From Pseudomonas sp. (GTDB taxonomy: Bacteria > Pseudomonadota > Gammaproteobacteria > Pseudomonadales > Pseudomonadaceae), in NCBI GenBank assembly GCA_033720015.1, contig JAWWDH010000001.1:38097-102096 (forward strand): DNA of 64,000 nucleotides. Reading direction: 5' to 3'. The notes beneath the pieces were generated by a model. That model did not search any database and was not told the origin of the DNA. It saw nothing but the letters and a program-made list of their open reading frames with translations. A program made the position numbers and the translations under genes. Shown piece after piece: positions 10,710 through 54,369 of this stretch. Position 1 is the first letter of the stretch, and every line of letters starts with the position of its first letter.

Positions 10710-11053
10710 GACCAGCTTCCGGCTTCAAATCCGGGGATCATGGCAGGCGTTTGCGCCCTCTACGGGCCTAATCTGACAATTTTCTTGCAGGTTTAGAAGC
10801 CATTTACCTTTTCGAGCCCTGGATAATCGCCCCGAGTGTCGGCATGCGTCCGTTTTGGCAACTCATGGCAGCAGGTTGGCCTTATTGGTCAACTACAGGG
10901 CAGTTAAGGTCTCGCTGATTGCCATCTTCGATCCGTTTTGGCAGCGCCACGGGCTTGGGTTCTCGGATTTGCATGTCTCAATGGGCTGTGAAGGTGCGAA
11001 GAAGCACCGTTCGAACCCCCTCTGGAAGGGGTTATCTTTGATGGAGTGGTGAT
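10710..11053. promoter_or_regulatory. Putative oriT and divergent promoter region
   Basis: Intergenic between divergent mobI and parM, the oriT position in SXT/R391 and IncC; 12-bp direct repeat TCCGTTTTGGCA at 10849 and 10932. Confidence 0.6.
10773..10791 (-). promoter_or_regulatory. Transfer-regulon box (degenerate) upstream of mobI
   Basis: CTGACAA-TTTTC-TTGCAGG; -10-like CATGAT 31-36 nt downstream; 63 nt to ATG. Confidence 0.55.
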
Positions 11054-12034
11054 ATGGCGAACTTTTTGGGGCTGGATATTGGCTACAGCAATGTGATTGG
11101 GGTGTTTGGCGATGGTGTAGATCAGTACGAAACCATTGTGCGGCCTTCACAGGCCGCCCCTCTGGACACGATTCCGGGCGATTCCGGGCTGCGGGCTGGC
11201 GAGGTGCTGGTTGAAGTTGACGGTGTGCAGTGGGTGGCCTTTGCGGCCCCTGGCCGCGTGCAGGAGGGCCGTGAGTTGCATCAGGACTATACCCAGTCGC
11301 CAGCATATAAGGCCCTATTCCGTGGTGCGCTGCTGCATGCTGCTGGTGATAGCGATGTAATTGATGTTCTGGTTACCGGATTGCCTGTTTCTCAGTCGCG
11401 GGACGATAAGTACGTTCAGGGTCTTATCGAGACAATGAAGGGGGCGCATCAAGTTACCCCCAAGCGATGCATCGAAGTGAAATCGGTTGTGGTTGTGGCT
11501 CAGCCAATTGGTACGCTGACCGATATTTATTGCTCATCTGAACATGCTGATGTTGTTGAAGAGTCGGTTTCGCTGATTATTGATCCGGGCTTCTTTAGCG
11601 TTGACTGGGTTCTGTTCGACCATAAAGAGCTAGTCGCACAATCAAGCTCCAGTAGCGTTAAGGCTATGAGCGTTCTGCTTCAGGCCTGCAATGAGGAAAT
11701 TGCTAAAGATCACGGTGGCATCCCTGGCGTTGAGAAGATTGAGCACGCCCTTCAGACTGGCAAGACATTTATTCTTATGTTTGGTCGCAAGGTAGAGCTT
11801 GCTGAATACATGAAGCGCGCGGCTGATCGTGTAGTGCCAGGGGTATTTACCGAAATCAAACAGACGCTACGCTTTCTCAAAGGGCGAGCCGTAGACTGCG
11901 TTATTCTTGGTGGTGGCGGTGCTAATGTTTATGAAGGCTATGCAAAGGTGGAATTTCCCGAGTCACTCGTTATCAAGCCTTCCGATAGCGTGAAGAGTAA
12001 TGCGGTTGGCTTTTACAATATCGCAGCCTCTTAA
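11054..12034 (+). CDS. parM: ParM/StbA actin-like partition ATPase (SrpM-like)
   Basis: LGLDIGYSN phosphate-1; LVTGLP; AQPIG; IIDPGFFSVD; LGGGGA. Confidence 0.9.
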   Translation: MANFLGLDIGYSNVIGVFGDGVDQYETIVRPSQAAPLDTIPGDSGLRAGEVLVEVDGVQWVAFAAPGRVQEGRELHQDYTQSPAYKALFRGALLHAAGDSDVIDVLVTGLPVSQSRDDKYVQGLIETMKGAHQVTPKRCIEVKSVVVVAQPIGTLTDIYCSSEHADVVEESVSLIIDPGFFSVDWVLFDHKELVAQSSSSSVKAMSVLLQACNEEIAKDHGGIPGVEKIEHALQTGKTFILMFGRKVELAEYMKRAADRVVPGVFTEIKQTLRFLKGRAVDCVILGGGGANVYEGYAKVEFPESLVIKPSDSVKSNAVGFYNIAAS

Positions 12035-12077
12035 AGTTTATTCAGGAGCGCCTCAAAATGAGGCGCTAAGGACATAT

Positions 12078-12350
12078 ATGCGTTTCCAAGTGAGAGTTGG
12101 TGAGCAATACCAAGAGCTACTTGAGCATCTTGAAGGCTTTAAGCCTGAGTATAGAGGCAAGCGGCTACTTGCTTTGGCTGCGATGCAGTTGAGTTCGGTA
12201 TCATTTAAAAACACGAATTCTTTAGGAGTTGTGGAAACCCCTGCCTCGGAGTCGGAGGAAGCCAGTCATACGGCAGCAGAAAATACACCCGCAGGACCTC
12301 CTAAAAGACGTTCAGCCCCTAACTGGATTAAGAGTAATACCAATGCTTAA
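12078..12350 (+). CDS. ParR/StbB-like DNA-binding adaptor (SrpR-like)
   Basis: Small protein after parM; AAGGA RBS; beta-strand/helix N-terminus and low-complexity tail. Confidence 0.6.
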   Translation: MRFQVRVGEQYQELLEHLEGFKPEYRGKRLLALAAMQLSSVSFKNTNSLGVVETPASESEEASHTAAENTPAGPPKRRSAPNWIKSNTNA

Positions 12351-12906
12351 CCAGGGACGCATTGTCGCAGTATTGTTGTTGGCTGGGCTGGCGAATACCG
12401 TTGCGGCATTCTCGCTTCAGGGGACAATGTGGGAGCGCGCTTCGAAGGCAAGCTCATGCAATGCGCCAGCCTTGTTGCTTTACTCAATAGCGCTTCAGGA
12501 ATCTCGCTCATCTGCCGGGGAAGGGCTCGTTCGCCCGCACCCATTTGCACTTAGGAATGAGCCCAGCGGTTCGAAATACCCTTCCTCAAAGGGCGAGGCT
12601 GTTGCACTCCTGCCTAAGTATATTGCGGAAGACAAGTTGACTGACATCGGAATGATGCAGATTAACTATCATTGGAACGGTAACAGGGTCAGCAAGCCAG
12701 AGCTGTTGCTTAATCCAGAGACAAATATTAAGGTTGCCGCTGATATTCTCTGCGAAGCAATCGCGGCGAAACGTGGTGATTTGGAGCTAGGCATAGGGGG
12801 TTATCATACCCTTAACCCTAAGCGTGAAATCGATGCCCGCACCTATGCACGAAACGTCCTATATATTTGGCGTGCTCTGCAGAGACTGGAGAGGCAGGGA
12901 GGCTAG
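12343..12906 (+). CDS. Lytic transglycosylase (SLT domain)
   Basis: Signal peptide; IALQES catalytic Glu; GMMQIN; L.PETNI..AA.IL; IGGYH. Confidence 0.9.
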   Translation: MLNQGRIVAVLLLAGLANTVAAFSLQGTMWERASKASSCNAPALLLYSIALQESRSSAGEGLVRPHPFALRNEPSGSKYPSSKGEAVALLPKYIAEDKLTDIGMMQINYHWNGNRVSKPELLLNPETNIKVAADILCEAIAAKRGDLELGIGGYHTLNPKREIDARTYARNVLYIWRALQRLERQGG

Positions 12907-12911
12907 TTCGG

Positions 12912-13940
12912 ATGTATGCACTGAATAGCGCTTTGGTTCAAATGACACTGCGGCGAATTGTCCTTAACGGGGATTCTAAGTTTAGCGCAGTGCTGGCTGA
13001 GCAACGGATCGGTTCCAAGGATCTAATGTGGCTTCAACTCCTCAATCGGAAGAAGCTTGAGGCGATTGACAAGCTCCCTGTATCCCTCTTCCGGATCTTC
13101 TACAGGACGATGGATATCGGCCGCTCCGGGCTCGATGACGATGTGTTCGAGAGCGCCTGCATTCGGCTTTCCATGATCATGGAAACGGTGGCCTTTGCTG
13201 TCACCAACAGGGCTAATTCTCTCATCTCAATCGGGTTTGATATGGAGGGGTTTGACAGGTTCCGAGCAGAGCCTTTCGCTCGCCGTCTCATGTTGATCCA
13301 GAAAGGTGGCTTCAGTCTGGGTACCCGCTGCAACCTTGCCTCTCTTGAGCTACGATCGGACGACCCTAGCAGTCAGTTGCGTGACTGCCTGCGCATCATC
13401 CTGGGAGACTATCGGTTCCTCCTGATCAATCGGCCGAAACATCTCGGCCGCATCCGGGATTGGAATGCTGAAATGATGGGGGCTGAAGCTATCGCTCACA
13501 ACCTCCTTTCAGATGGGGTGACCCCGAAGCTCGTTATCGCGCATGTAGGGTTGCCGCATAAGGTCAACAGCATTCACCGCAAGCTCCGTAGGGAGCAGGC
13601 GGTAATGCCGAAGGGAGGCGGTCGGATCGGCAGTCACACCGGTACTATTCAGCGCAATGCCCACCACTCTCTCCTTTTCATGGCTATCTACCTAATGCTC
13701 GCCAATGAGCCGATTGTGAGCATCAACGGCTTCGGGGTATCAAGGGCGCTGCATGAATACCGTCAGATTTGTGCCTACCTTGGCATTCACGAAGACGACA
13801 TGCTCGACGCCTCCGATTGCTGGCTCCTGGCCTCAGGTTACCGGGCTCAGGAGGTTGGCATAGAGGAATGCAAGTTGTGCAAGAACATCACTATCATCGA
13901 CAGGCGAAAGCCATGCGGATGTCCATGGTGTCAAAAATAG
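12912..13940 (+). CDS. FlhC-family transcriptional activator, apparently fused to an FlhD-like N-terminal half (AcaDC/SetDC-like)
   Basis: C-terminal LDASDCWLL and CKLC...CPWC zinc site; 342 aa; directly after the SLT gene, where acaDC/setDC sit. Confidence 0.7.
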   Translation: MYALNSALVQMTLRRIVLNGDSKFSAVLAEQRIGSKDLMWLQLLNRKKLEAIDKLPVSLFRIFYRTMDIGRSGLDDDVFESACIRLSMIMETVAFAVTNRANSLISIGFDMEGFDRFRAEPFARRLMLIQKGGFSLGTRCNLASLELRSDDPSSQLRDCLRIILGDYRFLLINRPKHLGRIRDWNAEMMGAEAIAHNLLSDGVTPKLVIAHVGLPHKVNSIHRKLRREQAVMPKGGGRIGSHTGTIQRNAHHSLLFMAIYLMLANEPIVSINGFGVSRALHEYRQICAYLGIHEDDMLDASDCWLLASGYRAQEVGIEECKLCKNITIIDRRKPCGCPWCQK

Positions 13941-13945
13941 GTTTG

Positions 13946-13971
13946 AGCCTCGCGATGTCGGGGCTTTTTTT
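13946..13971 (+). terminator. Intrinsic terminator
   Basis: GC-rich hairpin followed by a T7 run after the activator gene. Confidence 0.7.
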
Positions 13972-14069
13972 CCCGTCCAGGAAAGCGGTTTCGTAGCGCC
14001 GCGGGGTCGCTTGGGTTACTGCCGGGTCATGGGATGATGTAGACATGAAACTGATTGATGAGGTGATGT

Positions 14070-14429
14070 ATGGCTAACAACGACAAGGTCCAGTGCAAGT
14101 GCTGTGGGATGATGATGGTTCCGAAGACGATCTTCAGCCCCGGTATTTACGGTGGTTGGGGTTGGCGTATCGGTGGCGGTCGGCCGGTGTCGAACTGCTG
14201 CCCTTTCTGCTTGAGTGAGAGCTGGGATGGTGCGGCAACGGACGTTCGGACATCGACATGGTACCGCGCTGTAGCGCTTATCCTTTCCTTCGTTTGTCTG
14301 TTGGGCGGTTTTGCGATTCTTGGGTTCCTCAACGAGCAATTTTTCTCCGGAGGTTTGCCAGGGATACTGGCGCTTCTTCCCATTGCTGGTTCAATTTATT
14401 TTGCGTGGCGGTTTACGAAGGTGAGCTAA
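14070..14429 (+). CDS. Small inner-membrane protein with CxxC pairs; candidate entry-exclusion protein
   Basis: CKCC...CCPFC, two C-terminal TM helices, convergent with traG. Confidence 0.5.
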   Translation: MANNDKVQCKCCGMMMVPKTIFSPGIYGGWGWRIGGGRPVSNCCPFCLSESWDGAATDVRTSTWYRAVALILSFVCLLGGFAILGFLNEQFFSGGLPGILALLPIAGSIYFAWRFTKVS

Positions 14430-14465
14430 TCTCATAACAATAACCGCCGCGCAGTCAACACCCAC

Positions 14466-14491
14466 AAAAGAACCCGCTTGGCGGGTTTTTT
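14466..14491. terminator. Bidirectional terminator
   Basis: AAAAGAACCCGC-ttg-GCGGGTTTTTT. Confidence 0.8.
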
Positions 14492-14501
14492 GTTAATAAA
14501 A

Positions 14502-17342
14502 TTAATCGTCTATACTAGGAGGCTTTTTGCTGTTACGGCTTAGCTCCTGCAATTTACTGTACCCATCGCTCACAGCATTGATAACCGGAGAGGCTATCTG
14601 CTTTGCTCCTACAATAAGGGTGTTGCTGCTATCAAAGTTCCCTATGCCCTTAAACCCATCAACAACAGGTGACGTGGTATTCATGCTTACATCAGGCTTC
14701 TCCATCGTCATTTGGGGAACAGCGTTTAGGTTTTCTTGGTTATATTCGGCTACAACATTGTCGTTTTCAGTTTGAGCTGCACTAACAATATCTTTTCCGC
14801 TCTCTACCGATTGCTCTCGACCAGACAGGGACATATCGTATTCCGATGTATAGCCGCCTTCATTTGCACTCCACTTTGAGTTGAATCTGTCATTTAAGTG
14901 ATCAGTTGGTATGCGATTGTCTTGCATGCCTTCAAACTCACTTGCATTGCCAGCGCTTACATTGAAGTCAAACGGAGTGAATTTCGAGCCGATAAGTTCA
15001 TCTAGCCTACCTGACTGCATCATGTGTAGCATTGAAGCTGCTACAGCACGCTCATTACTGTCTGCACTCACGCCGCGCACAGTAGAGCTATCTATAAGCG
15101 TTCGAATTGCCTGCTGATCATCATTCGTTTTCCCAGCCATGTCCAATATTTGACGGGCGGCCTCTTCTCTTGGCAAGCCGCTTCTCGCTAAGCTACTTGC
15201 AGCAGCAACACCAATGTCCATATCTTGCCTGGATGACCATGCCTCTTTCTGTGACGCTGCGTATTTATAGGCTTCCTGAGCCGTTTTTGCGGCCGTGGTG
15301 CTTTTCGCTATTTGCTCACCATTGGAAGCCTGTTGCATTGCCTGCTGGCTTGAATTAAACGAATCTGCAGAGTTGTAGATTGTGCTTTCACTCATATTTG
15401 ACTGAACAGCTCGACTGAGTTGCGCAACTGCCTCACGAGCTTGCTGCTGCTGCTCAGAGCTCATCTTCTGGAAGGATTCGCTCTGTTCAAGTTTTGTTCC
15501 AATCGCTCCTAATGGCGCTTGGAAGCCTATAGATGCACCCCAAACGCCCTGCGCAATTTCATTTTGTGTTATTCCATGAGACTGAAGCGTTTTGGACGCT
15601 TCATTGAACTGTGCGTTTTTACTCAGACCAAGGGCTGCTTGTGATTGCTGCCCAAGGCCCGCTAAGGTCTGCCGGCCTTCTGAGCTGCTATTTAATTGCG
15701 ATGAGCCAGCAACAAGTTGCTGCTGCAGTTGACTGGTGGCTGTTTCTGCATTGGTGCGGCTACTTTCAACTGCAGCCTCTGCTGATTGTGAGGCCGAAAT
15801 CTTTGGTGCAACCGCCCTTGCTCCAGTAACAGCAACGCCCTGGGTCATCTGGTCAGACGTAAAGCTGCTGGTCGAATCCATCACCGGCGCTTGGTTCTTC
15901 GCCCGCGGCAACACATCCTCGGACTTGAACTTATCGCCCTGCGTCATCTGGCCCATGATGCCGTTGGCCACCATGGCTGAGCCAGACACGATGAAGAGTG
16001 CTAGGGGCGGTACCGAGGCAGCAAGCAAACCACCTATCCCAAGCGCCTTCGAAATGGCTTGATCTAGGTCCAGCACCTGCAGCATTGCGAAGCCTTCGCT
16101 TGTGCTGTCATAGCCTTCGAACACAGCCTGAATCTCAGCGCCGGCATACCAAAGGGTAAAGGCATTGACGATGCTTAAAAGGGGCATCCACAGGCCAACA
16201 GCCAACGGCAAGATCAGGTATTTGCCGAGCACGGACAGTCCAGGGCTACCCAGCACGAGGGCAAAGGCCATGAACGGAGTCATCGCGTACAGCAGGCCCT
16301 CAAAGAAGGCAATCATGGGGCGCATGTAGTGCTTGAAGATGTCGCCCTTGCCTGCCCACTGGATTTCTTGCTGGTTAAGGGATTCGCGCAAAGCCATGGC
16401 AGCATTCTGCTCCTGCCAATGGTTCAGGGCGTTGACGCGGGCATCCCCAAAGATCGGGACGATCAGGGCCATGGTGGTGTAACCCTGGGCATTCTTGGCG
16501 CTAATCCCCATTGATTGGATGGCGTCATCGGTACGCGCCATTACCTCGCCAGCGGTATTGATCTTTCCAGCAGCCCGCTCGGTAGCAAAGCCTCGGGCGA
16601 GTACATCTTCCATCAAGTCGGTGTAGACATCGGCTAGTGCCGTATTGAGTACAGCTTGGGCCTGGCTGCACGACATCAGCTGGCCGCCAGGTACGGTGCC
16701 GTCCTGGATGTAGACGAACTGAGATGTAAGCGGCGCGTTGAAGACCCCTGCAGCGCCAGAGGCGCGGTAAAGGTCGTCGATGCTCTGATACTCCCGTAGG
16801 GCAATCGGGTTCAGAGTACAGAACGTCAGAAACTCATCAACGCTTCTTGGCAGGTTCCAGCCCGCGTTTTTCCTGTAGTTCACATATGAATCGAGCGCCA
16901 AAGGATTGCGCAGTGCATCGCGCACCCGGCTAATGGTCGTAAGGCTGCTGAAGAGCCCATAGTCGGTCATTGTGGGGGTTGAAAAGGCCTGTTCACCGAC
17001 GCGAGTAATGTCGTATGCAACTGTCGAAATCACCGAGCCGACAAATGTTGGCCCTAAGGGCACATTGTCAACCACCCTCGCCTGCCCCGTGGTTGTGTCC
17101 TCTATAACTGCTGTTGTTGTCGGACCGTAGAAGATGAGATACAAAACCAACAGAAGCCCGGCCTTCTGGAAAGAGATCCCTTGGCCGTTGAATACAGCCT
17201 GAAACCCAAGAAGGAGCAAGCCAATCATAAGGCCAATCCTTGCAAGGTCTTCGGATGTTCCCGACGAGGTAATCATGGCGCTCGCATTGAGCATGATTTC
17301 AAGGAACTCGGCGCTGCCGGTTGTGTAAATGTTCATACTCAT
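14502..17342 (-). CDS. traG: Mating-pair stabilisation protein TraG
   Basis: TraG_N start MNIYTTGSAEFL..MLNA; RVVDNVPLG; multiple TMs; follows traH. Confidence 0.95.
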   Translation of the reverse strand: MSMNIYTTGSAEFLEIMLNASAMITSSGTSEDLARIGLMIGLLLLGFQAVFNGQGISFQKAGLLLVLYLIFYGPTTTAVIEDTTTGQARVVDNVPLGPTFVGSVISTVAYDITRVGEQAFSTPTMTDYGLFSSLTTISRVRDALRNPLALDSYVNYRKNAGWNLPRSVDEFLTFCTLNPIALREYQSIDDLYRASGAAGVFNAPLTSQFVYIQDGTVPGGQLMSCSQAQAVLNTALADVYTDLMEDVLARGFATERAAGKINTAGEVMARTDDAIQSMGISAKNAQGYTTMALIVPIFGDARVNALNHWQEQNAAMALRESLNQQEIQWAGKGDIFKHYMRPMIAFFEGLLYAMTPFMAFALVLGSPGLSVLGKYLILPLAVGLWMPLLSIVNAFTLWYAGAEIQAVFEGYDSTSEGFAMLQVLDLDQAISKALGIGGLLAASVPPLALFIVSGSAMVANGIMGQMTQGDKFKSEDVLPRAKNQAPVMDSTSSFTSDQMTQGVAVTGARAVAPKISASQSAEAAVESSRTNAETATSQLQQQLVAGSSQLNSSSEGRQTLAGLGQQSQAALGLSKNAQFNEASKTLQSHGITQNEIAQGVWGASIGFQAPLGAIGTKLEQSESFQKMSSEQQQQAREAVAQLSRAVQSNMSESTIYNSADSFNSSQQAMQQASNGEQIAKSTTAAKTAQEAYKYAASQKEAWSSRQDMDIGVAAASSLARSGLPREEAARQILDMAGKTNDDQQAIRTLIDSSTVRGVSADSNERAVAASMLHMMQSGRLDELIGSKFTPFDFNVSAGNASEFEGMQDNRIPTDHLNDRFNSKWSANEGGYTSEYDMSLSGREQSVESGKDIVSAAQTENDNVVAEYNQENLNAVPQMTMEKPDVSMNTTSPVVDGFKGIGNFDSSNTLIVGAKQIASPVINAVSDGYSKLQELSRNSKKPPSIDD

Positions 17343-17345
17343 TGC

Positions 17346-19747: not shown

Positions 19748-19815
19748 TGAGGTGGCCAAGTGAGATTTCTGACTTGGCCATTTTGCTCATCGAGCGAGAG
19801 GAAAGGTCTTCTAAA

Positions 19816-19834
19816 CCGACCAGTTTTTGGTAGG
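19816..19834 (-). promoter_or_regulatory. Transfer-regulon box upstream of traF
   Basis: CCGACCA-GTTTT-TGGTAGG; -10-like CAAAAT 31-36 nt downstream. Confidence 0.75.
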
Positions 19835-19848
19835 AAAAGCCCAGAGGC

Positions 19849-20970: not shown

Positions 20971-21030
20971 GGTGATCTCCTATAGCTGTAAGGTGTATCC
21001 ACGCCCATTGCTGGGCGTGGGGTTGCTGGC

Positions 21031-21944: not shown

Positions 21945-21980
21945 TTTCGTTTCTCCGTTTCTGAATTTCAGACGGAGAAA

Positions 21981-22010
21981 CCCCCTAACGGGAGTGTCCC
22001 CCGTCAGGGA
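21981..22010 (-). promoter_or_regulatory. GC hairpin-RBS module, copy A
   Basis: CCCTGACGGGGG-acact-CCCGTTAGGG about 35 nt upstream of ATG 21944. Confidence 0.55.
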
Positions 22011-22326: not shown

Positions 22327-22345
22327 CTGACCAGAATCTGGTCGA
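22327..22345 (+). promoter_or_regulatory. Transfer-regulon box upstream of the acaB-like gene
   Basis: CTGACCA-GAATC-TGGTCGA; 66 nt to ATG 22412. Confidence 0.75.
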
Positions 22346-22411
22346 ATTAGCGCAACCGAAAGCCGTTGCATTTGGTGGAATGAACATGCCACCAATCAAC
22401 GGAGATTCACC

Positions 22412-23071
22412 ATGGCCGTCAAGCCCGTAACCAGCGATGCACCCTACTCGACCGCGATCATGAAGCGGAAGATCACATTTCAGACCGAGGAAGCCAAAAG
22501 CTTCCTGGGCAACAAAATGGACAACATTGCTGTTGCCCTATTCATCCTCGACGTGATCTCTCGCAAGCGGATCGCTCGACTGAACCTCAGTACCAAAGAC
22601 CACAAGGCGGCATCCAAGGCGCTGAACAAGCTCTTTACCGACTTCGAAAAAGAAATCCAGGACGAAACCACTCGCCTGGAAGCTGTGCTGAAAGCACAGA
22701 AAATCCAGGGCCGGGCTGAGCACAACAACCCTGGAAGCTACGAGGTGGAAATTACCACCCCAGAACTGAAGCGCGCCGTTGATCTGCTGCTGGCCTTCGA
22801 CAACCTGATCGTCCTGGTCGATACCGTTTGGCTGATGGGCATCATGGAAACCGATGTCGCAAACCAGTTCCGCGCCACCAAGGCAGGCCAGATCAAGCGC
22901 CTCTTCGGTTCTGTCTACAAGCTCAGCCAGGCCGCCAAGCAGAGCGCCTTCGTTAAGGATGACGCCGATACACAGGCCGTTATTGCCCGTGAAGAGAAAA
23001 AGTTGGAACCGCAGGAAGAGCAGCCGGCGGCGGCTGAACCTCAACCTGCCGACTCCCAAGACGCGGCCTGA
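22412..23071 (+). CDS. acaB: AcaB / DUF1845-family transcriptional regulator
   Basis: KITFQTEEAK; IAVALFILDVI; VEITTP; FDNLI..VDTVWLMG. Confidence 0.7.
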   Translation: MAVKPVTSDAPYSTAIMKRKITFQTEEAKSFLGNKMDNIAVALFILDVISRKRIARLNLSTKDHKAASKALNKLFTDFEKEIQDETTRLEAVLKAQKIQGRAEHNNPGSYEVEITTPELKRAVDLLLAFDNLIVLVDTVWLMGIMETDVANQFRATKAGQIKRLFGSVYKLSQAAKQSAFVKDDADTQAVIAREEKKLEPQEEQPAAAEPQPADSQDAA

Positions 23072-26999: not shown

Positions 27000-29470
27000 G
27001 CGGCCTCAATGCTGGTGGCATCGTAGGCAACACCGCGGTCTTTCAGTACGCGCAGGATCGCTTCGTGCTGCGGTACACCGCTGCTGGTGTAATCCTTGAT
27101 GGCCTGCACGTCCTCCGGCGCGGTCGAGTACAGCAGCTTCGCGTATTCATCCACCGTGAGCCGGGCAATACCGACGCCGCGGGGGGTCAGCATGAAGATT
27201 TCCGAGTAGTGGCCCTTGTAGGTCTTCACGGTCTTCAGGATGCGGTAGCCACCCTCGCCCAGCGGCAGACGTTTGTTTTCCTGGATGGCGTCGATGGCCT
27301 CTGCTTTCTGGCCCAGCAGCAGGGTGAAGGCCGAGTTCTCCGCAATGGCCTGGCCGACCTTGTTTTGGTACAGGTCGTTCACGCCCTGGGTAATCACAAT
27401 GGCGCTGCCGCCGTACTTACGGAAGCGGCGATAACCATGCTCGATGAACTCGCCCACGTTGCCTTGGCTCAGCAGCGACCAGGCCTCGTCGATGATCACA
27501 ATCTTCGGCCGGTCACGGTCACCCAGGTACATATCCTGCTGGATCTGGTAGATCAGCTGCAGCAGCACAACCTGCTGCAGGTGGGTACGCCCCTTCAGCT
27601 CTTCCAGCTCGAGAACCGTGAACGGGTTGCGGAAGTTCAGGTTGTTCTTGCCGTTGAAGAACCGGCCGTACTGACCCTTGGAGGTGAACGCGAAGAGCTG
27701 GTGGCCAATGTCATTGATACGGCGGTCAACGTCCAACAGCAGCGACTGCTCGATGTCGTCGACAACCATGGTTTTACCCTTCTCTTCCCAGGTCTTGGTC
27801 AGATGCTTCTTGAGGCCGGCTGTCTGGAAGTCATCCAGGGGCACGGTCGGGGCAGCCATGGCCGACAACAGACCGACCAGCACGTCTTCTTCTTCGGAGT
27901 AGTCCTCGATCAGCTCGAACGGGTTGAGGCAAATCTGGGAGTCCTGGTCGAAGCGGGCAAAATCGCCTTTATAGGCTTCACAAATCTTCAGGTAGGAAAG
28001 GCCCACGTCGATACACCAGACCTTGGCACCAATCGACAGGTAGGAAGAGATCAGGTAGTTGGTCAGGAACGATTTACCCGACCCGGACTGCGCGGCGATG
28101 GTGCCGTTGTAGTTGGTATCAGAGTCGAATAGGTGGAAGCTCATCGGCTGGCCGTTGCGCGAGATGAACGGAGCGACAGGCGTGCCAGTACCTTTCCAGT
28201 CGCCGTAGATCGGAAGAAGCGGCAGGGCCTGGGTCAGGCTCAGGGTCTTGTAGCGGAACATATCCTGGATAGAGGTCGGGTCAGCGCACATAGGCAGAGC
28301 ATTGATGAACACCGGCAGGACGACGAACTTGTCTTCCATGAAGGTGAAGCTTTGCGTGGAGAAGTGGCTTTTGGCGTTGGAAGATGCCTGGGTCAGCTCC
28401 TCCTTATTGCGGCCGAATACAACCAGGGTCATGGCCGCCTTGATGTTCGGCAAGCCCTTATCAAGGTCGGTGAAAAGCACCTCGTAAGCGTGGCGCTTCT
28501 GTACGAGCTTCGGCACGAAGGTAGCCAGCGGCCCCTGGGTCTGGTTGATCGCCCATTGGCGGTTGCGAGCCAGCTTGTCTTTCGTCTCCAGTTGCGGCGG
28601 GAAGAACATGGTCAGCGTGATCACGCAGTTGCCGCGTATCCCGCCCCGCTGAGACATGATGTCCGCAAGGTACTGCGAAGCATCACCCTGCCACATCAGG
28701 TCCGGAAACTTCTTGATGCTCATGGTCTTGAGCATGCAGTCGTCGCCAATACGGATGTGGTCGGGACGAACATGAACAGATCGCTGGAAATCAAGCACCT
28801 GCTCATTCAGAGGCTTGTCGGTTTCGGCGCGGATATAGGGATCTTCACGCCAGCTGGCCGATTCGCCCTGGTTGAGGATCGAGGTAAAAATTTCCTTGTA
28901 GGAATCGTTGGTCAGCGGGACGGGGGCAAGCCCGCAGCTATCCAGCGAGGTTTGCAGGCCATCGGCCAAGTCTTTGGCAAGGGTCGCTTCGGTATTCGTC
29001 GGCGTACTATTGGCAATGGGCATGGTCACAGAAATAACCAGGTTCTGTTCACGCACACGAACGCCTGAAATCTTGTCCACCGGTACAAGGGTACGCTCGC
29101 TGAAATACTCGGCCCGGGCCTCAGTCACTTTCTGCAGCAGTGCCAAGGTTTCGGGGCTGACATCGAACTTGCCCCGCTCTATATAGGCTTTGCGCAGGCG
29201 CGTGGAGCCGGTCTTCAATCCGTTGATGTTCTCGGTACAGATAAGCGAAAACTGAATGGTTGTGCCCTCCGGCCAATCAACAGTCAGGCCAGCTTTCAAA
29301 CGTGCGCCCTCATCGCCGGATGAGCCGGAAAGAGGCTGGCAGACGAATGCAAAGCCCAACCGATTACCCGTGAGCTGGAACAGGTGCATGTTCGGGTCGT
29401 AGGCCAGCCCATTGATCAGCTTGGAAAGGCGCGGCGTGACGCGGATCAGCGATTGCAGAAAGGACAGCAT
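26996..29470 (-). CDS. traC: VirB4-like ATPase TraC
   Basis: AAQSGSGKSF; CIDVGLSY; IIDEAWSLL; YRRFRKYGG. Confidence 0.97.
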   Translation of the reverse strand: MLSFLQSLIRVTPRLSKLINGLAYDPNMHLFQLTGNRLGFAFVCQPLSGSSGDEGARLKAGLTVDWPEGTTIQFSLICTENINGLKTGSTRLRKAYIERGKFDVSPETLALLQKVTEARAEYFSERTLVPVDKISGVRVREQNLVISVTMPIANSTPTNTEATLAKDLADGLQTSLDSCGLAPVPLTNDSYKEIFTSILNQGESASWREDPYIRAETDKPLNEQVLDFQRSVHVRPDHIRIGDDCMLKTMSIKKFPDLMWQGDASQYLADIMSQRGGIRGNCVITLTMFFPPQLETKDKLARNRQWAINQTQGPLATFVPKLVQKRHAYEVLFTDLDKGLPNIKAAMTLVVFGRNKEELTQASSNAKSHFSTQSFTFMEDKFVVLPVFINALPMCADPTSIQDMFRYKTLSLTQALPLLPIYGDWKGTGTPVAPFISRNGQPMSFHLFDSDTNYNGTIAAQSGSGKSFLTNYLISSYLSIGAKVWCIDVGLSYLKICEAYKGDFARFDQDSQICLNPFELIEDYSEEEDVLVGLLSAMAAPTVPLDDFQTAGLKKHLTKTWEEKGKTMVVDDIEQSLLLDVDRRINDIGHQLFAFTSKGQYGRFFNGKNNLNFRNPFTVLELEELKGRTHLQQVVLLQLIYQIQQDMYLGDRDRPKIVIIDEAWSLLSQGNVGEFIEHGYRRFRKYGGSAIVITQGVNDLYQNKVGQAIAENSAFTLLLGQKAEAIDAIQENKRLPLGEGGYRILKTVKTYKGHYSEIFMLTPRGVGIARLTVDEYAKLLYSTAPEDVQAIKDYTSSGVPQHEAILRVLKDRGVAYDATSIEAA

Positions 29471-30183: not shown

Positions 30184-30247
30184 GGGCAAGCCTCTGATTG
30201 AAGTTGCCAATAGGATAGGGAGAGGAGAAACAGAAAGGCCTCTTAAT

Positions 30248-30266
30248 CTGACAACAATCTGGTCAG
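30248..30266 (-). promoter_or_regulatory. Transfer-regulon box upstream of dsbC-traC, embedded in the traA terminator hairpin
   Basis: CTGACAA-CAATC-TGGTCAG inside AGGCCTCTTA...AAGAGGCCT; -10-like TATCCT 31-36 nt downstream. Confidence 0.75.
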
Positions 30267-30302
30267 ATAAGAGGCCTTTGGGAGGGGCGTGAAACCCGGG
30301 GA

Positions 30303-30730: not shown

Positions 30731-30749
30731 TCGGCCACTTTGTTGTGAG
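30731..30749 (-). promoter_or_regulatory. Degenerate transfer-regulon box upstream of traA
   Basis: TCGGCCA-CTTTG-TTGTGAG, resembling the traK copy. Confidence 0.4.
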
Positions 30750-41974: not shown

Positions 41975-42038
41975 CGGGAAGCCTCAGTTCTCTGATAGCT
42001 GCATTTTCCCGAGTCAGCGAACATGATTGGCGTTTAAT

Positions 42039-42057
42039 CTGACCACTTTTTTGTCGA
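42039..42057 (-). promoter_or_regulatory. Transfer-regulon box upstream of traK
   Basis: CTGACCA-CTTTT-TTGTCGA; -10-like GAAAAT 31-36 nt downstream; 64 nt to ATG. Confidence 0.75.
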
Positions 42058-42089: not shown

Positions 42090-42102
42090 ATCTGGTGGGC
42101 TA

Positions 42103-43792: not shown

Positions 43793-43858
43793 GGTTTCTG
43801 TCCCAGTACGTTGTTGCTGGGCAGTGTGCATCCAGCAACAACCGATTTGGGCCTGAAT

Positions 43859-43877
43859 CCGACCAGATTTTGGTCGG
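43859..43877 (-). promoter_or_regulatory. Transfer-regulon box (perfect arms) upstream of the dsbA-like/traL/traE unit
   Basis: CCGACCA-GATTT-TGGTCGG; -10-like CACACT 31-36 nt downstream. Confidence 0.8.
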
Positions 43878-43878
43878 T

Positions 43879-44529: not shown

Positions 44530-44878
44530 TTAGCAGGTACTCCTTAATGGGGGTTGGAATCGTCGCTACATCGCAAAGGCCAGCCACAACATCATCAGGA
44601 ACTGCCGAACCGCGCTCCTTTAGCTGGATGAACAGCTGCGACAGAACGTAATACAGGCGCTCGTAATCGCTCACGCCTTGCTGGCATAGGATTTTGTAGT
44701 TAAACAGCGCATCGCTTAGTGACTCGGCCACATCCTTGTTGGCAAAGCCGGCCTTCACCAGGCCGAGTAGGAAACGTGTACCGCAATTCCAGTCGATGTC
44801 GAAATTGCGCAGGATGGCCATCGTTTGCTCATCCAGGGCGAGGTAACGCTGTATCTCAAGGGTACGGGTAACAGACAT
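44522..44878 (-). CDS. Hypothetical protein in the traD-traJ operon
   Basis: 118-aa ORF coupled to the next gene. Confidence 0.6.
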   Translation of the reverse strand: MSVTRTLEIQRYLALDEQTMAILRNFDIDWNCGTRFLLGLVKAGFANKDVAESLSDALFNYKILCQQGVSDYERLYYVLSQLFIQLKERGSAVPDDVVAGLCDVATIPTPIKEYLLNG

Positions 44879-44895
44879 GGGGCATTCCTGTGCGC

Positions 44896-46728: not shown

Positions 46729-46731
46729 CGC

Positions 46732-49158: not shown

Positions 49159-49222
49159 GTGATGTATCCACCAGTTAAGTGGGCACATGATCCCGAAAGC
49201 AGCTCGCCTTAGGTTCTCTAAA

Positions 49223-49241
49223 CCGACCAGATTTTGGTAAT
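49223..49241 (-). promoter_or_regulatory. Transfer-regulon box upstream of traI
   Basis: CCGACCA-GATTT-TGGTAAT; -10-like GATCAT 31-36 nt downstream; 64 nt to ATG. Confidence 0.8.
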
Positions 49242-49267
49242 AAAAAAACCCGGCCAGAGGCCGGGTT
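49242..49267 (-). terminator. Intrinsic terminator after exo
   Basis: AACCCGGCC-tct-GGCCGGGTT followed by a T-run. Confidence 0.85.
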
Positions 49268-49271
49268 GGGG

Positions 49272-50306: not shown

Positions 50307-50901
50307 CGCCGACCTCCTCAGCGAACCCCAACCGCACAATGTCACCATATTTCTGCGCCGGCCCTTTCAACTCACGGATCTGCGCGCAGAGCTTCAAATC
50401 GGCAAACATTTGAGTCCGCTTCAGACCAGAGGCCTTGTAAAAGCCCTTGCCGAAGTTGCTTCCTTCTTCGCGCACACAGACGTAGCCGATACCATCGAGC
50501 TCAACCTTGCGGCGCTGGTCAGCCTTAGCCAGTAAGCCTTGAACACGCTCATCGAACGCGCCAACAGCTTCCCGGTAGGCCTTCCCTGTTTCGTAACCCA
50601 GAGAGTGAAGCCCATTGCAAAGAGCTTCGAAGCGCGCCTTGAGCAGGGTTTCAGTCTTTGCATGGAATACCTTGAGCTGCTCAGCGTACTGATCACCCCA
50701 GGCAACAAGCTCAGCCTTTTCAGCATCGCCAATCCCTTCCAGGAGTGGGCTTTCTGGCCAGTAGGTCAGATCACTGTAGGCGCTGAACTTTTCCAGGTGC
50801 TTCTTGCTGCGAATATCAACGGCCATTTCAGCCCCCTGGTGTTCGCAGATTGCTTCACATGCAGCGTGGTAAGCCACGCAGGCGTCAGCGAAAGTTTTCA
50901 T
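50293..50901 (-). CDS. Hypothetical protein
   Basis: AGGAG RBS; overlaps the exo start. Confidence 0.7.
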   Translation of the reverse strand: MKTFADACVAYHAACEAICEHQGAEMAVDIRSKKHLEKFSAYSDLTYWPESPLLEGIGDAEKAELVAWGDQYAEQLKVFHAKTETLLKARFEALCNGLHSLGYETGKAYREAVGAFDERVQGLLAKADQRRKVELDGIGYVCVREEGSNFGKGFYKASGLKRTQMFADLKLCAQIRELKGPAQKYGDIVRLGFAEEVGDESR

Positions 50902-50970
50902 CTCTATTCTCCTTTCTGGTTAGTTCACCACCCAGGCCAAAACACCCAAGGCGGAACCCAGAAAGGGCAA

Positions 50971-51002
50971 ATCCCCAGAGGGGGTATTGCCCCCCTGGGG
51001 AT
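50971..51002 (-). promoter_or_regulatory. GC hairpin-RBS module, copy B
   Basis: ATCCCCAG(A)GGGGG-tattg-CCCCCCTGGGGAT on the plus strand. Confidence 0.55.
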
Positions 51003-51021
51003 TGGTTTTCCAGTTACTTTC

Positions 51022-51285
51022 TCAACTGGATATACCCTTGCGCACAAGGCTCAGGGCTTCGATTTTGTCTGCTCCAAGCATCTCGTCTCTCTTATCGATG
51101 CCTGGAGCTATTTTTGCCACCTTGAACAGGCGGCAGGTTTCAGCAGTGACTGCCCAATGCTCATCGCCGTGCCTGCTGAGTAGCTGGCTGAACAGCCTGG
51201 CCCCGCAAATTTGCGGGGTCTGACCGAACACAGCGATACAGCGATTGAGCGATCGCCCGTACTTCAAGATCGCCATGTAGCTCAC
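51022..51285 (-). CDS. Hypothetical protein
   Basis: 87 aa; 4-nt overlap with the upstream gene. Confidence 0.55.
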   Translation of the reverse strand: MSYMAILKYGRSLNRCIAVFGQTPQICGARLFSQLLSRHGDEHWAVTAETCRLFKVAKIAPGIDKRDEMLGADKIEALSLVRKGISS

Positions 51286-51815
51286 GCGACCTCCTGGTAC
51301 TGCTGCTTGATTTCATCAGCGCGGCGGTTAGCCTCCTCCCAGCTCATCTGCCCAGCATTGCAAGCCTGGATGATTGCTGTGATTTGGCTGCCACGCTGCC
51401 AGTCACGAGTGACGCACAGACGGTCGAGCGCCCCCTGATCGAGGACGGTGTATCCATCGTCAAGCATGTCCCCCAAGCAAAGCTCAGGGGTGTCATGCGT
51501 GCAGTGCCCGGTGAACCCGTCCCGCTGGAATTGTGTCCAACGGTATCGGCCCGGCCCTGATGCATCCTCTGTGAGAACGCCCCAGGCATCACGGTCTTGG
51601 TGTTTAAGCGTCAGGCCAAGCCCGTGCGCAGCGAACAGACCGAACAGCAATTCCAGGGAGGAAATTTTCCCCTGAATCCAGCTGATCAGCTCATCCGCCA
51701 AACAGGCAAAGCCTTCTCCCGTTTCTTTCGCAGCCAGCCAATCGGCAAGCGACTCACGCAGCGACTCAAGCGTTGAAGGAACCATGTCGCCCTCCTTCAC
51801 TCTTGTCGGCTGCAA
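51282..51815 (-). CDS. Conserved plasmid hypothetical protein
   Basis: 177-aa ORF; start may be ATG 51785. Confidence 0.65.
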   Translation of the reverse strand: MQPTRVKEGDMVPSTLESLRESLADWLAAKETGEGFACLADELISWIQGKISSLELLFGLFAAHGLGLTLKHQDRDAWGVLTEDASGPGRYRWTQFQRDGFTGHCTHDTPELCLGDMLDDGYTVLDQGALDRLCVTRDWQRGSQITAIIQACNAGQMSWEEANRRADEIKQQYQEVA

Positions 51816-51948
51816 GACCCGGGAACCCGTTCAACTCCTTCTGTGCCATCTGGACAGCTTGATTGAAGCTGTAAGCCTGACACTGGTACCGGGTGTATTC
51901 CTTGGTCTGTTTGTTAAACATCGCCAGGATGTAAGTACGCATTTTCAT
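51766..51948 (-). CDS. Small hypothetical protein
   Basis: AGGAG RBS downstream of hairpin C. Confidence 0.55.
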   Translation of the reverse strand: MKMRTYILAMFNKQTKEYTRYQCQAYSFNQAVQMAQKELNGFPGLAADKSEGGRHGSFNA

Positions 51949-51978
51949 TTCTCCTTCTCATCCCTGAAACGGAGCTAT

Positions 51979-52004
51979 CCCCTGTGGGGAAATGCCCCAC
52001 AGGG
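51979..52004 (-). promoter_or_regulatory. GC hairpin-RBS module, copy C
   Basis: CCCTGTGGGG-aaatg-CCCCACAGGG perfect stem. Confidence 0.6.
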
Positions 52005-52025
52005 TTGTTTGTTTGAGCTGAAGCC

Positions 52026-52070
52026 TTACGGCAGCAGCAGAGTCAGGATCAGGACGATGATGTCGGCCAT
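52026..52070 (-). CDS. Putative 14-aa hydrophobic peptide MADIIVLILTLLLP
   Basis: GAGG RBS; located between hairpins D and C. Confidence 0.35.
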   Translation of the reverse strand: MADIIVLILTLLLP

Positions 52071-52080
52071 TTCGCTATCC

Positions 52081-52323
52081 TCATTGATTGCCAACAGCTG
52101 CCCTATGCAGGGGTAGCCCCGGCATAGGGTTGGTTGGATGCTCGGGGTTGTCCCATACAGCAAGACATTCCGAGCAGATTTTATTTCTGTAGATGCGGTT
52201 CTCAAGCAACTTGACGTTGGGGTGAGAGACATCTTCACCCCTGTCAAACACCCTGGATCGCGATTGGCCGCAGAACGTCGCGCCGGCCATGAAACCATTG
52301 ATCGACAGGTGCGCCATGATCAC
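52081..52323 (-). CDS. Small hypothetical protein
   Basis: 4-nt overlap with the bet stop; CSEC motif. Confidence 0.45.
   Translation of the reverse strand: MIMAHLSINGFMAGATFCGQSRSRVFDRGEDVSHPNVKLLENRIYRNKICSECLAVWDNPEHPTNPMPGLPLHRAAVGNQ
52101..52129 (-). promoter_or_regulatory. GC hairpin-RBS module, copy D
   Basis: CCCTATGC(A)GGGG-tag-CCCC(G)GCATAGGG. Confidence 0.5.
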
Positions 52324-53462
52324 TCCCCATTCGCTGCAGCTTCGTACTGAGCGGCACGCAACAAACGCAGAGCGTAGTCACGAGCTTCTACAGGCCAAGC
52401 AGAGACGTATTCGATGGCGGCTTGCCAGCCACCGGATGCACGCGCACGCTTGAGCACCTCCTGGGCTTTGGCGATCACCTTGGGCGGAAGATCCGCTTCA
52501 GTGGTCGCTTGAGCGTGGGTAGGTGCAGGTTGTTCAGCAGCTTCCGCTTGTGCCTGGACAGGCTCAGCGTTTTCCACCAACTCGCCATTGATCGGCTCCG
52601 GTTCAGCTTCAGTTGCAGGGTCTGCCGCAGCTTGTGTCCCGGCCTGGTTAGAGGTCGGCAGCGGCTGGGATTCGTCCACAACTTCAGCAGCACCCATGTA
52701 GCGCTCAACCACGGAAGCAGGCACATCGTGAGAGGCAAAGCCTTCGCCTGCAGCTGTGTTGAGGTACTGGATAACCGTGTCGAGCTTTTCACCGACCTGG
52801 GGCCAGTATTTTTTGGCGATCTTGATGCCGGACTTCTTGCGCATGGAATCTTCGAAGTCGAGCCAAGGGCCTTTCTTCTTCCGTTTCCACAGCTCGCTGG
52901 CATCACGCGCCTTGTAGATTTCGGCAGCCGTAACCGCCTCCACATGAACGCGACCATCCGGCAGCGTGACTTCGACGTAGACACCGCGGAATTCACCGCG
53001 CTGCTCCTTCAGATCGAAGGGGTCGAACTCATGAACAGGGCTGTGACGCTTGCCTTTGTACTGGAACGTGTCCAGCGAGTAGACCAGCTCCACGATGCAA
53101 TCCCTGATCGCGCCATCGTTCACGGCAGTCTTGATCATGCCCTTGTAGGACACATCCAAGATCACCTGCCCCTCGCGAGGCACCAGGTAACACAGACCCC
53201 GGGCGGGGTTCAGTGTCAGGCCGCAAGCGGCAACCTGGGAGAACGCATTTCGAAGGCTCAGCGGGTTGTTGATTGCAGTGGTACACAGGTAATCGTTATT
53301 CATCATCGCTTGAGATGCATAAAGCATCTCTTGCTTGAATACGACATCCGTGTTGGCCGCTTTAACCAACTCCATGAACTTCATTTCCTGCTTAGCAATA
53401 ATTGCCACGGCGTTTTGGAATTTTTCACTCATCTTAATTATCCCTTCAAAGAAAAAGCGCAC
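52320..53462 (-). CDS. bet: RecT/Bet single-strand annealing protein
   Basis: FKQEMLYASQ; QVAACGLTLNPARGLCYLVPR; DVSYKGMI; M..KS.IK.A.KYWP; true start probably ATG near 53432. Confidence 0.9.
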   Translation of the reverse strand: MRFFFEGIIKMSEKFQNAVAIIAKQEMKFMELVKAANTDVVFKQEMLYASQAMMNNDYLCTTAINNPLSLRNAFSQVAACGLTLNPARGLCYLVPREGQVILDVSYKGMIKTAVNDGAIRDCIVELVYSLDTFQYKGKRHSPVHEFDPFDLKEQRGEFRGVYVEVTLPDGRVHVEAVTAAEIYKARDASELWKRKKKGPWLDFEDSMRKKSGIKIAKKYWPQVGEKLDTVIQYLNTAAGEGFASHDVPASVVERYMGAAEVVDESQPLPTSNQAGTQAAADPATEAEPEPINGELVENAEPVQAQAEAAEQPAPTHAQATTEADLPPKVIAKAQEVLKRARASGGWQAAIEYVSAWPVEARDYALRLLRAAQYEAAANGE

Positions 53463-53539
53463 CCTGGGGCGCGCTTTTATTTGCTACCTAGTTGCAGTTA
53501 GTTCAGAAAACAATGCCTGTTAGGAATTGTTATTCCTCG

Positions 53540-54022
53540 CTAAAAGGGGATGTCGTCATCGAAGCTATCGTAATTCTGCGCGGGGGCCGGAGCCGAAGCC
53601 TGTTGACGATTATTTTGCTGCTGGGGACGCTGCTGGTTTTGTCCTTGCGGACGATTGTTACCAGAACCGCCATCCTGCTGCTTACCGCCGAGCAACTGCA
53701 TCGTGCCGTTGATATCAACCACGATTTCCGTGGTGTAGCGCTTGATACCATCCTTTTCCCACTCACGAGTTTGAAGTTTGCCTTCGATATAAACTTGCGA
53801 GCCCTTTTTGAGGTACTCACCAGCAATCTCAGCAACTTTCCCGAAGAGGGATACACGGTGCCACTCGGTTTTTTCTTTTTTCTCACCAGATTGTTTGTCA
53901 GTCCAAGCTTCACTGGTTGCGAGAGACAGGTTGGTTACCGCATTGCCGTTGGGCATATAACGGACTTCCGGATCTTGTCCGCAAGTACCAACCAGGATCA
54001 CTTTGTTTACGCCACGAGCCAT
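53540..54022 (-). CDS. ssb: Single-stranded DNA-binding protein
   Basis: [12 protein letters not shown]...DPEVRY; C-terminal FDDDIPF. Confidence 0.97.
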
Positions 54023-54058
54023 ATCAATTCTCCATTCGAAGATAATACGGGGCGACGT

Positions 54059-54097
54059 AAACCCCGGTCGGGGAATAGCGTAGCCCCGAGTGGGTTT
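54059..54097 (-). promoter_or_regulatory. GC hairpin-RBS module, copy E, upstream of ssb
   Basis: AAACCCACTCGGGG-ctacgctatt-CCCCGACCGGGGTTT. Confidence 0.55.
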
Positions 54098-54350
54098 CAT
54101 TTTCTGATGATTGAGTTGCTTTTATCAGACGGCCAACTTACCGACCATACGCCGAAGCGTATGACTAAATCGAACTGCGCATGCAGATCGACTTAATAGG
54201 AGGAATTCTTGAGTGGGGCTTGCCCAGGGCCGCGCAGTGAGGGTCACGCGCTGGCAGAAGATTGACGCCATTGAGACGTGGCTAAATCTTAGCCTTGCTT
54301 CAATCGCCATTGCAAGCCTTGGCCTGCGTCAAAGTCGACGGAAGGTTTAT

Positions 54351-54369
54351 CTGACCAATTTCTTGCACA
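54351..54369 (+). promoter_or_regulatory. Transfer-regulon box (degenerate) upstream of the lipoprotein-DsbA operon
   Basis: CTGACCA-ATTTC-TTGCACA, nearly identical to the mobI copy; -10-like CAGAAT 31-36 nt downstream; 66 nt to ATG. Confidence 0.6.

Follow-up and report, generated by a model that had tools for sequence, protein, structure and literature searches.

A palindromic box at fixed promoter geometry in the transfer region of a Pseudomonas plasmid, and an AcaC/FlhC-type protein as its candidate activator

What switches on the many operons of a conjugative transfer region together? The question is raised by a stretch of Pseudomonas sp. DNA 64,000 nucleotides long (C1:38097-102096 of a draft genome of 3.97 Mb in 697 contigs; "the window" below), where a 19-bp palindromic box stands before most of the transfer operons. 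A first-pass annotation had read this box as an activator site that keeps a fixed geometry to its promoters and defines the transfer regulon, and the present analysis supports that reading: the boxes occupy promoter positions of transfer-related operons only, are consistent in orientation and are conserved. The box is real, enriched, fixed in its geometry and kept at orthologous promoters. We propose, with a probability of roughly 80%, that the plasmid encodes a master activator of its own transfer for which the box serves as operator; the candidate is a 342-residue protein encoded in the window (P0001). Two plasmids with the same gene order as the window, the complete 261-kb Stutzerimonas stutzeri plasmid NZ_CP078510.1 and the IncP-7 plasmid pCAR1 (NC_004444.1), are used for comparison throughout.

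Boxes, hexamers and start codons

All ten 19-bp sites listed in the annotation are present, and their positions are collected in Table 1 together with the promoter elements that follow them. The consensus CYGACCA-N5-TGGTCRG had been assigned to eight main copies; six of these (19816, 22327, 30248, 42039, 43859 and 49223) fit it with at most two mismatches, whereas those at 10773 (four mismatches) and 54351 (five) fit it poorly, go unfound at up to three mismatches, and are backed instead by their geometry, flank and conservation in relatives. Across the window the consensus has a single exact match, at 43859 (0.00 expected), and eight matches at up to two mismatches, where 0.96 are expected and none of 100 shuffles reaches eight; the two matches beyond the six, at 27784 and 42563, lie inside the traC and traE open reading frames (ORFs) and look like chance. 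When the sites are oriented to their genes the motif proves directional, reading CYGACCARAWWNTGGTCRG and then WTTAGA on the promoter-proximal side. A 25-nt weight matrix was built from seven window sites and scored leave-one-out, the left-out sites reaching 21.4-34.1 bits, and the best window site outside the training set is the 54351 box, at 14.7 bits. The copy at traA, described earlier as weak, scores below 8 bits, and its position is kept both in NZ_CP078510.1 (with the hexamer GACAAT) and in pCAR1.

The spacing of box, promoter and gene holds as first described. Every -10-like hexamer in the annotation's list sits at +31 to +36 after the 19-mer, and hexamers are seen solely on the side where a gene follows; they are described as carrying A in the second and T in the sixth place (A2/T6), with traA fitting after a shift of 1 nt. 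Start codons follow the box by 64-69 nt (84 nt at traA), a TTGACA-like element is absent at the -35 position, and the boxes of traF, traK, traI and traN directly adjoin terminator hairpins with T-runs, in agreement with the remark that several boxes come after terminators. At least 13 promoters have a box that ends 30 nt before an A2/T6 hexamer; with the transcription start site (TSS) predicted 7 nt past the hexamer, box and flank together would span -61 to -37, and the dyad would end at -45. For the window boxes the starts predicted in this way are 10730, 10834, 19773, 22388, 30205, 41996, 43816, 49180 and 54412.

These features bear on two other explanations of the palindromes. Palindromic operators are typical of repressors, and the box might be the operator of a repressor, or of another plasmid or host factor, at promoters that are constitutive unless bound. 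Its position argues otherwise, as it lies upstream of the -35 position and not over the -10 element or the TSS; the promoters, moreover, should need an activator, because their -35 is absent and their -10 weak, and homologous systems use this same box position for activation. We consider a repressor operator quite unlikely. The palindromes could also be structural repeats, whether parts of terminators or akin to repetitive extragenic palindromes, with no role in transcription initiation. Several of them do abut terminators, and a 45-nt palindrome with perfect arms (AAAGGCCTCTTAT-box-ATTAAGAGGCCTTT, directly after traA, window 30225-30290), which could terminate traA transcripts, has the dsbC box at its centre. 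Yet 7-bp arms around a 5-nt spacer make weak hairpins, the true terminator stems adjoin the boxes and are not inside them, and boxes also stand where no upstream gene ends (acaB, mobI/parM). A structural origin would leave both the fixed 30-nt distance to the A2/T6 hexamer and the conservation in relatives unexplained, and we give it almost no weight. With the box read as an activator site, the dsbC palindrome may double as traA terminator and dsbC operator.

Table 1. Boxes, associated promoter elements and the genes most closely concerned. Positions are those of the window unless a contig is named.
Feature	Position	Strand	Box sequence and flank	-10 hexamer	Start codon	Remarks
mobI/parM intergenic box, leftward to mobI	10773..10791	both directions	CTGACAATTTTCTTGCAGG	CATGAT 10737-10742	ATG 10709	
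Same box, rightward to parM-parR-SLT-activator	10773..10791	both directions	flank TTTAGA	GATAAT 10822-10827		best hexamer of all
traF-traH-traG box	19816..19834	-	CCTACCAAAAACTGGTCGG+TTTAGA	CAAAAT 19780-19785	ATG 19747	34.1 bits leave-one-out; directly after terminator hairpin; orthologous box in NZ_CP078510.1 and L018
acaB box	22327..22345	+	CTGACCAGAATCTGGTCGA+ATTAGC	TGGAAT 22376-22381	ATG 22412	orthologous boxes in NZ_CP078510.1 and L018 carry TGAAAT or TGGAAT
dsbC-traC-(S26 peptidase)-traW-traU box	30248..30266	-		TATCCT 30212-30217	ATG 30183	same hexamer at dsbC promoter of NZ_CP078510.1
traA (pilin) box, weak	30731..30749	-	CTCACAACAAAGTGGCCGA	AAAAAT, shifted 1 nt	ATG 30647	
traK-traB-traV box	42039..42057	-		GAAAAT 42003-42008	ATG 41974	after terminator with T8 run; NZ_CP078510.1 has identical tcggGAAAAT, divergent spacer
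dsbA-like-traL-traE box	43859..43877	-	CCGACCAGATTTTGGTCGG	CACACT 43823-43828	ATG 43792	sole perfect palindrome; same hexamer at dsbA-like-traL promoter of NZ_CP078510.1
traI (MobH relaxase)-traD box	49223..49241	-		GATCAT 49187-49192	ATG 49158	after terminator with T7 run; box upstream of mobH in NZ_CP078510.1 has CATGAT
Lipoprotein and DsbA-like operon box	54351..54369	+		CAGAAT 54400-54405	ATG 54436	product with lipobox LTGC; orthologous site in NZ_CP078510.1 scores 22 bits, hexamer CAAAAT
traN box	C2:49709			TAGCAT	ATG 69 nt after box	upstream of 884-aa TraN
Box outside the window	C1:6455			TATCAT		
traR-like box	C71:11153			TACCCT		upstream of DksA/TraR zinc-finger gene
P0001, candidate activator, 342 aa	12912-13940	+				directly after SLT gene
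AcaB homologue, boxed regulon member	22412..23071	+				Pfam AcaB 26.4 bits; PDB 6n8b "transcription regulator AcaB", E 3e-8
MobI homologue, boxed regulon member	10125..10709	-				Pfam MobI 27.7 bits

The geometry also touches the annotation of start codons. Longest-ORF starts of traI (49188), the dsbA-like gene (43831) and dsbC (30210) in the window run into the box or the -10 element, and the RefSeq starts of traF (36934) and acaB/DUF1845 (34421) in NZ_CP078510.1 likewise run into the box or the -10 hexamer. The downstream ATGs at conserved spacing are more likely to be the real starts, including those of traF and acaB in the Stutzerimonas plasmid.

Boxes in relatives and in the rest of the genome

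The transfer regions of both comparison plasmids are syntenic with that of the window gene for gene, including a 340-aa activator homologue (63% identical in NZ_CP078510.1 and 35% in pCAR1, where it occupies record positions 162089-163099). In NZ_CP078510.1, the window-trained matrix finds boxes before traN, the lipoprotein/thioredoxin operon, mobH, thioredoxin-traL, traK, traA, dsbC, acaB and traF; each side of the mobI/parM spacer has one as well, as do three other sites in the backbone. The -10 hexamers at orthologous promoters are the same or nearly so (TAGCAT, CACACT, GAAAAT, TATCCT and GATAAT among them), the 24-nt spacers have diverged, and the half-sites lean to TTGTAGG and TGGTAAG. 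A metagenome contig (L018) with a 75% identical activator carries boxes at parM/mobI, traF and acaB; in both relatives every orthologous promoter retains box and hexamer while its spacer differs, and the hexamer on the parM side is kept as GATAAT both there and in the Stutzerimonas plasmid, and as GATTAT in pCAR1.

The box of pCAR1 is a different one, CnGACnnTAAAAnnGCCTGAAAACG, which stands at the same genes and, as in the window, is separated by 24 nt from an A2/T6 hexamer; within positions 124160-165190 of the record it is found at mobH, trx-traL, traK, traA, dsbC, traF and mobI, in the mobI spacer on its parM side, and more loosely matched at acaB. Its distal half-site CnGACC is common to the window box, whereas its proximal half reads CTGAAAACG, so that the pCAR1 box is non-palindromic. 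Since the plasmid with the 35% identical activator has another box at the same distance, the sequence of the box diverges along with the activator while the geometry remains fixed. Three further loci were compared: L014 carries window-type boxes, and in L015 and L016 neither type of box was matched, save for one weak pCAR1-type match in L015.

Over the other 3.91 Mb of the draft genome, the window-trained matrix gives seven matches of at least 20 bits (against 0.2 in shuffles), all of them on contig C1 outside the window or on contigs C2 and C71, and none chromosomal. Three of these sites show the full geometry (Table 1), among them that of traN, the one gene of the type IV secretion system (T4SS) absent from the window. 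Beyond the window the regulon thus takes in traN, a traR/dksA-like gene and others. A matrix scan had been suggested as a means of finding genomic islands that hijack the regulon; no such island is detectable in the draft, where the strong matches are all on plasmid contigs. The contig C71 was considered as a mobilizable island, with a P4-type integrase downstream of the boxed traR-like gene, and set aside as plasmid backbone because the same block is present in NZ_CP078510.1. Matches on the chromosome at 12-17 bits fall within long ORFs or in a tRNA gene, have no hexamer, and were also discarded. On C2, a further strong palindromic box (C2:14532-14562), which scores 23-25 bits whichever way it is read, is found 180 nt upstream of a Rep3 initiator gene, with no A2/T6 hexamer at +31 to +36.

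A candidate activator and its possible mode of action

Which protein might bind the box? The gene of P0001 is placed directly after that of SLT, and its product has two parts: residues 1-185 form an all-helical domain of a kind that was not recognised, and residues ~190-342 an AcaC/FlhC-type domain in which the cysteines C320, C323, C337 and C340 are invariant in the family. In a tblastn search, residues 152-342 match genes labelled "FlhC family" on IncC and pAQU-type plasmids, and hhalign pairs P0001 with IncC AcaC at 96.6% probability (E 4.9e-10). The AlphaFold (AF2) model made from a more diverse alignment has a pLDDT of 89 and a pTM of 0.89, and its top three Foldseek matches are FlhC chains (8j56_C/F and 2avu_E; probability 1.0, template-modelling (TM) score 0.70-0.72 over ~150 columns). 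A library-wide phmmer search with P0001 finds only ~13 clusters of full length; it also finds short proteins that align with residues 189-342, and the majority of these pass Pfam FlhC. By sequence comparison and predicted fold, then, the C-terminal half of P0001 is an AcaC/FlhC homologue.

Several observations weigh against P0001 as an activator of this kind, or against the box as its operator. Pfam FlhC matches neither P0001 nor anything else in the genome, and Pfam FlhD (PF05247) has no match in the genome even at E 10. No FlhD chain is among the Foldseek matches of the high-confidence full-length model, the N-terminal 185 residues matching no FlhD structure, hhalign gives IncC AcaD a probability of 0.4% and no alignment with the N-terminal half of P0001, and no separate FlhD-like gene was found, the neighbouring small ORFs offering no hint of one. 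The boxes at 10773 and 54351 have a single good half-site each, and in pCAR1 the TSS of traF on the tiling array (155840) lies 32 nt upstream of the predicted position (155872). Finally, an AcaB homologue co-occurs with the boxes and, judged by sequence alone, could be the binder.

IncC transfer requires AcaB, a DNA-binding transcription regulator, and the homologue encoded in the window could be both the binder of the box and the general tra activator, with P0001 acting elsewhere; its own gene is boxed, which would fit autoregulation. Against this, the promoter at which AcaB acts in IncC plasmids is that of the acaDC operon. The many IncC tra promoters are bound by AcaCD, as shown by chromatin immunoprecipitation with exonuclease digestion (PMC4207636), the geometry of the box here matches the AcaCD motif interval, and the known circuit already includes an acaB promoter that depends on AcaCD. 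Because the protein on the many tra promoters of IncC is AcaCD, we rate AcaB as the binder very unlikely, and P0001 stands as the predicted binder of the box.

If no AcaD/FlhD-like part is recognised, what might the N-terminal half of P0001 be? The idea of a fused FlhD-FlhC protein has support for its FlhC half and none for its FlhD half (Foldseek, hhalign). The gene order SLT-acaD-acaC of IncC corresponds here to SLT-P0001, which puts the N-terminal domain in the position of AcaD, and a fusion with a diverged D-like part is possible for this reason. Since neither similarity to FlhD or AcaD nor a separate FlhD-like gene was found, P0001 may also need some other partner or work unlike AcaCD. 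Small ORFs at 7497-9992 were considered as acaC and acaD and rejected, having no family matches.

In light of P0001 being the candidate activator, how might it work? Two of its AcaC/FlhC-type DNA-binding domains would sit on the dyad GACCA-N5-TGGTC and the proximal WTTAGA, at about -61 to -37, and P0001 so bound would recruit sigma-70 RNA polymerase to promoters with a weak -10 (nAnnnT) and no -35, as AcaCD does in IncC. This one protein would switch on traI-traD, dsbA-traL-traE, traK-B-V, traA, dsbC-traC-W-U, traF-H-G and traN, along with mobI, acaB, the lipoprotein/DsbA operon and the traR/dksA-like operon.

The gene of P0001 may belong to the same regulon. The box at 10773 had been assigned to mobI, and the geometry of the mobI promoter bears this out, but the box does not serve mobI alone, as it also faces the divergent parM-SLT-activator operon. 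On the + strand between 10800 and 13940 no sigma-70-like promoter was found, and a terminator follows immediately after the stop codon of the activator gene. In pCAR1, a tiling array placed ORF154-150 in one transcription unit (unit #41) with its start at 165130 (PMC2642839), and the box geometry predicts a parM-side start at 165123. Because the mobI/parM box faces the parM-parR-SLT-activator operon, the activator probably stimulates its own synthesis. The origin of transfer, oriT, adjoins the 5' end of mobI (PMC13635750) and is by analogy with IncC expected in the mobI/parM intergenic region, from which the predicted autoregulation would also proceed. A 12-nt direct repeat, TCCGTTTTGGCA, occurs at window 10849-10860 and 10932-10943, in the 220-nt leader from the predicted parM-side start to parM; the two copies may be parC-like ParR sites.

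How does this system compare with known ones? With AcaCD of IncA and IncC plasmids (pVCR94) it has in common a 5-N5-5 palindrome with an A/T-rich flank and a motif interval that abuts the missing -35. The AcaCD motif of IncC occupies -64 to -37, with the palindrome GCCC-N5-GGGC, the core GCCCNDWWWGGGC and a footprint of RNA polymerase from -42 (PMC8373056), and both AcaCD and SetCD promoters have been described as class II-like with a degenerate -35 (PMC4207636; PMC4344509). Further points in common are the targets (traI, traL-E, traK, traA, dsbC-traC, traF-H-G, traN, mobI, acaB and the parM side of the mobI spacer), the homology of the C subunit to the C-terminal half of P0001, the SLT gene immediately upstream and the presence of AcaB. 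The mobI/parM spacer of an IncC plasmid, too, carries TGCCCAAAAGGGGCA facing parM at a similar distance to a TATTCT element. In contrast to AcaCD, the core here is GACCA-N5-TGGTC(RG)WTTAGA and neither GCCC-N5-GGGC nor GCCCNDWWWGGGC, the activator is one chain of 342 aa with no AcaD/FlhD-like part detected in the chain or among its neighbours, and the host range is that of Pseudomonadaceae-type plasmids. The activator gene here ends a boxed parM operon, whereas in IncC an acr1-acaDC operon is under AcaB and the Acr1 and Acr2 repressors.

SetCD of the integrative and conjugative elements SXT/R391 shares with the system described here an FlhDC-like master activator, a box immediately upstream of a degenerate -35, and control of many tra promoters, including divergent pairs with back-to-back boxes, and the SetCD box is sufficient for activation (PMC4344509). 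It differs in its unrelated box sequence, two-subunit activator, integrative element, SetR/SOS control and int/xis targets, and its box is slightly nearer the promoter, at -53 to about -35 by deletion analysis (PMC4344509). At the class II flagellar promoters of FlhD4C2, the DNA-binding subunit likewise has the FlhC fold (TM 0.70-0.72) and a Cys4 zinc site, and the activator is bound to sigma-70 promoters upstream of the -35, which it abuts; here, however, no FlhD partner was detected, the operator is much shorter and unrelated, and the targets are conjugation genes. Among the marks of an AcaCD/SetCD-type regulon, an FlhC-like subunit with a Cys4 site and one motif before most transfer operons (relative to the predicted TSS) are found, and a separate FlhD-like subunit beside the C subunit is not.

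Because the geometry of -61 to -37 equals the AcaCD interval and the IncC spacer is arranged alike, we read the box system as the same device with a different recognition sequence. On this analogy the AcaCD/SetCD principle, already known, has a new specificity here, and the mechanism is not a new one. A further proposal, which we hold tentatively and at somewhat less than even odds, is that in IncP-7 and related Pseudomonadaceae plasmids a single chain (AcaC/FlhC domain plus new N-terminal domain) replaces the two-subunit AcaCD/SetCD, with an operator whose specificity has drifted between sub-lineages, being a palindrome here and the asymmetric CnGAC..CTGAAAACG in pCAR1.

In the open literature searched, no description was found of an activator or of a box/operator for IncP-7 pCAR1, NZ_CP078510.1 or these relatives, so that the conjugation switch of IncP-7-type and related Pseudomonas/Stutzerimonas megaplasmids, which carry catabolic, metal-resistance and antibiotic-resistance cargo, is undescribed there. 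Under the single-chain proposal, one direct switch with positive feedback would govern partition, oriT processing and transfer together. What results is a concrete operator with a gene for its candidate activator, a set of target promoters that numbers at least 13, and matching predictions for the well-studied pCAR1; as a concept it extends a known principle and adds no new one. The matrix can also be used to seek islands that eavesdrop on these plasmids, in the way that SGI1 eavesdrops on IncC plasmids.

Plasmid context and neighbouring elements

The window carries an F-type transfer region (a MobH-type relaxase, traD, traL/E/K/B/V, traA, dsbC-traC, traW/U and traF/H/G) and, in addition, MobI, a ParM-like partition gene, the SLT gene, the AcaB homologue and ssb-bet(RecT)-exo(YqaJ). 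The MobH/TraI relaxase, MobI, the F-type T4SS, ssb-bet-exo and a parM between traG and mobI together make a MOBH12 backbone, backed by Pfam matches to MobI, TraU, TrbC_Ftype, TraV, RecT, YqaJ, SSB, ALP_N and TraN and by the synteny with pCAR1 and the Stutzerimonas plasmid; the MOBH12 group takes in these backbones along with IncA/C, pAQU1, IncT and SXT/R391 (PMC13635750; PMC4489591). Matches to database plasmids at the DNA level are confined to traD and its neighbours, at ~75%.

Besides the boxed traN, C2 (52.9 kb) encodes a Rep3-family initiator (C2:13190-14353), and C71 (11.6 kb) holds an mvaT-integrase-phosphoesterase-traR block that is also found inside the Stutzerimonas plasmid. Because this block recurs within a complete plasmid, C1, C2 and C71 are taken as pieces of one plasmid, which is therefore at least 167 kb. 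From its gene content and order, we take the window to be part of a large conjugative plasmid of MOBH12 and mating-pair-formation class F (MPF-F), comprising contigs C1, C2 and C71, with a backbone syntenic with pCAR1. The likeness to IncP-7 pCAR1 is one of transfer-backbone synteny; the replicon here is the Rep3-family initiator on C2.

A half-site before ssb (54141) had been counted among the activator boxes. No hexamer follows it at +31 to +36, and it lies where a hairpin of a structured leader has its 3' arm; the leader, separately conserved, is an element distinct from the activator boxes. This leader is a stretch of ~190 nt (window 54022-54215, - strand) upstream of the real ssb start, which is an ATG near 54022 and not 54100. 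It is ~85-90% conserved with the Stutzerimonas plasmid, far above neighbouring intergenic DNA, and folds into several hairpins, such as CATACGC-TTCG-GCGTATG (z = -3.6 as single-stranded DNA); a comparison with Rfam gave no match. The stretch may act as a single-strand promoter or an RNA leader, or else as a priming signal through which expression begins early in the recipient. Leftward use of the 54351 box toward ssb was also considered and rejected, the hexamer on that side not being conserved.

Two further genes lie in the window. Beyond the transfer region, at 57516-58739, a SAVED-HNH protein (an effector of the type used in cyclic-oligonucleotide-based antiphage signalling systems, CBASS) is encoded with further + strand ORFs, probably as anti-phage cargo. 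At 3952-4692 on the - strand, an ORF of 246 aa matches the Pfam Zeta-toxin kinase family at 33.3 bits.

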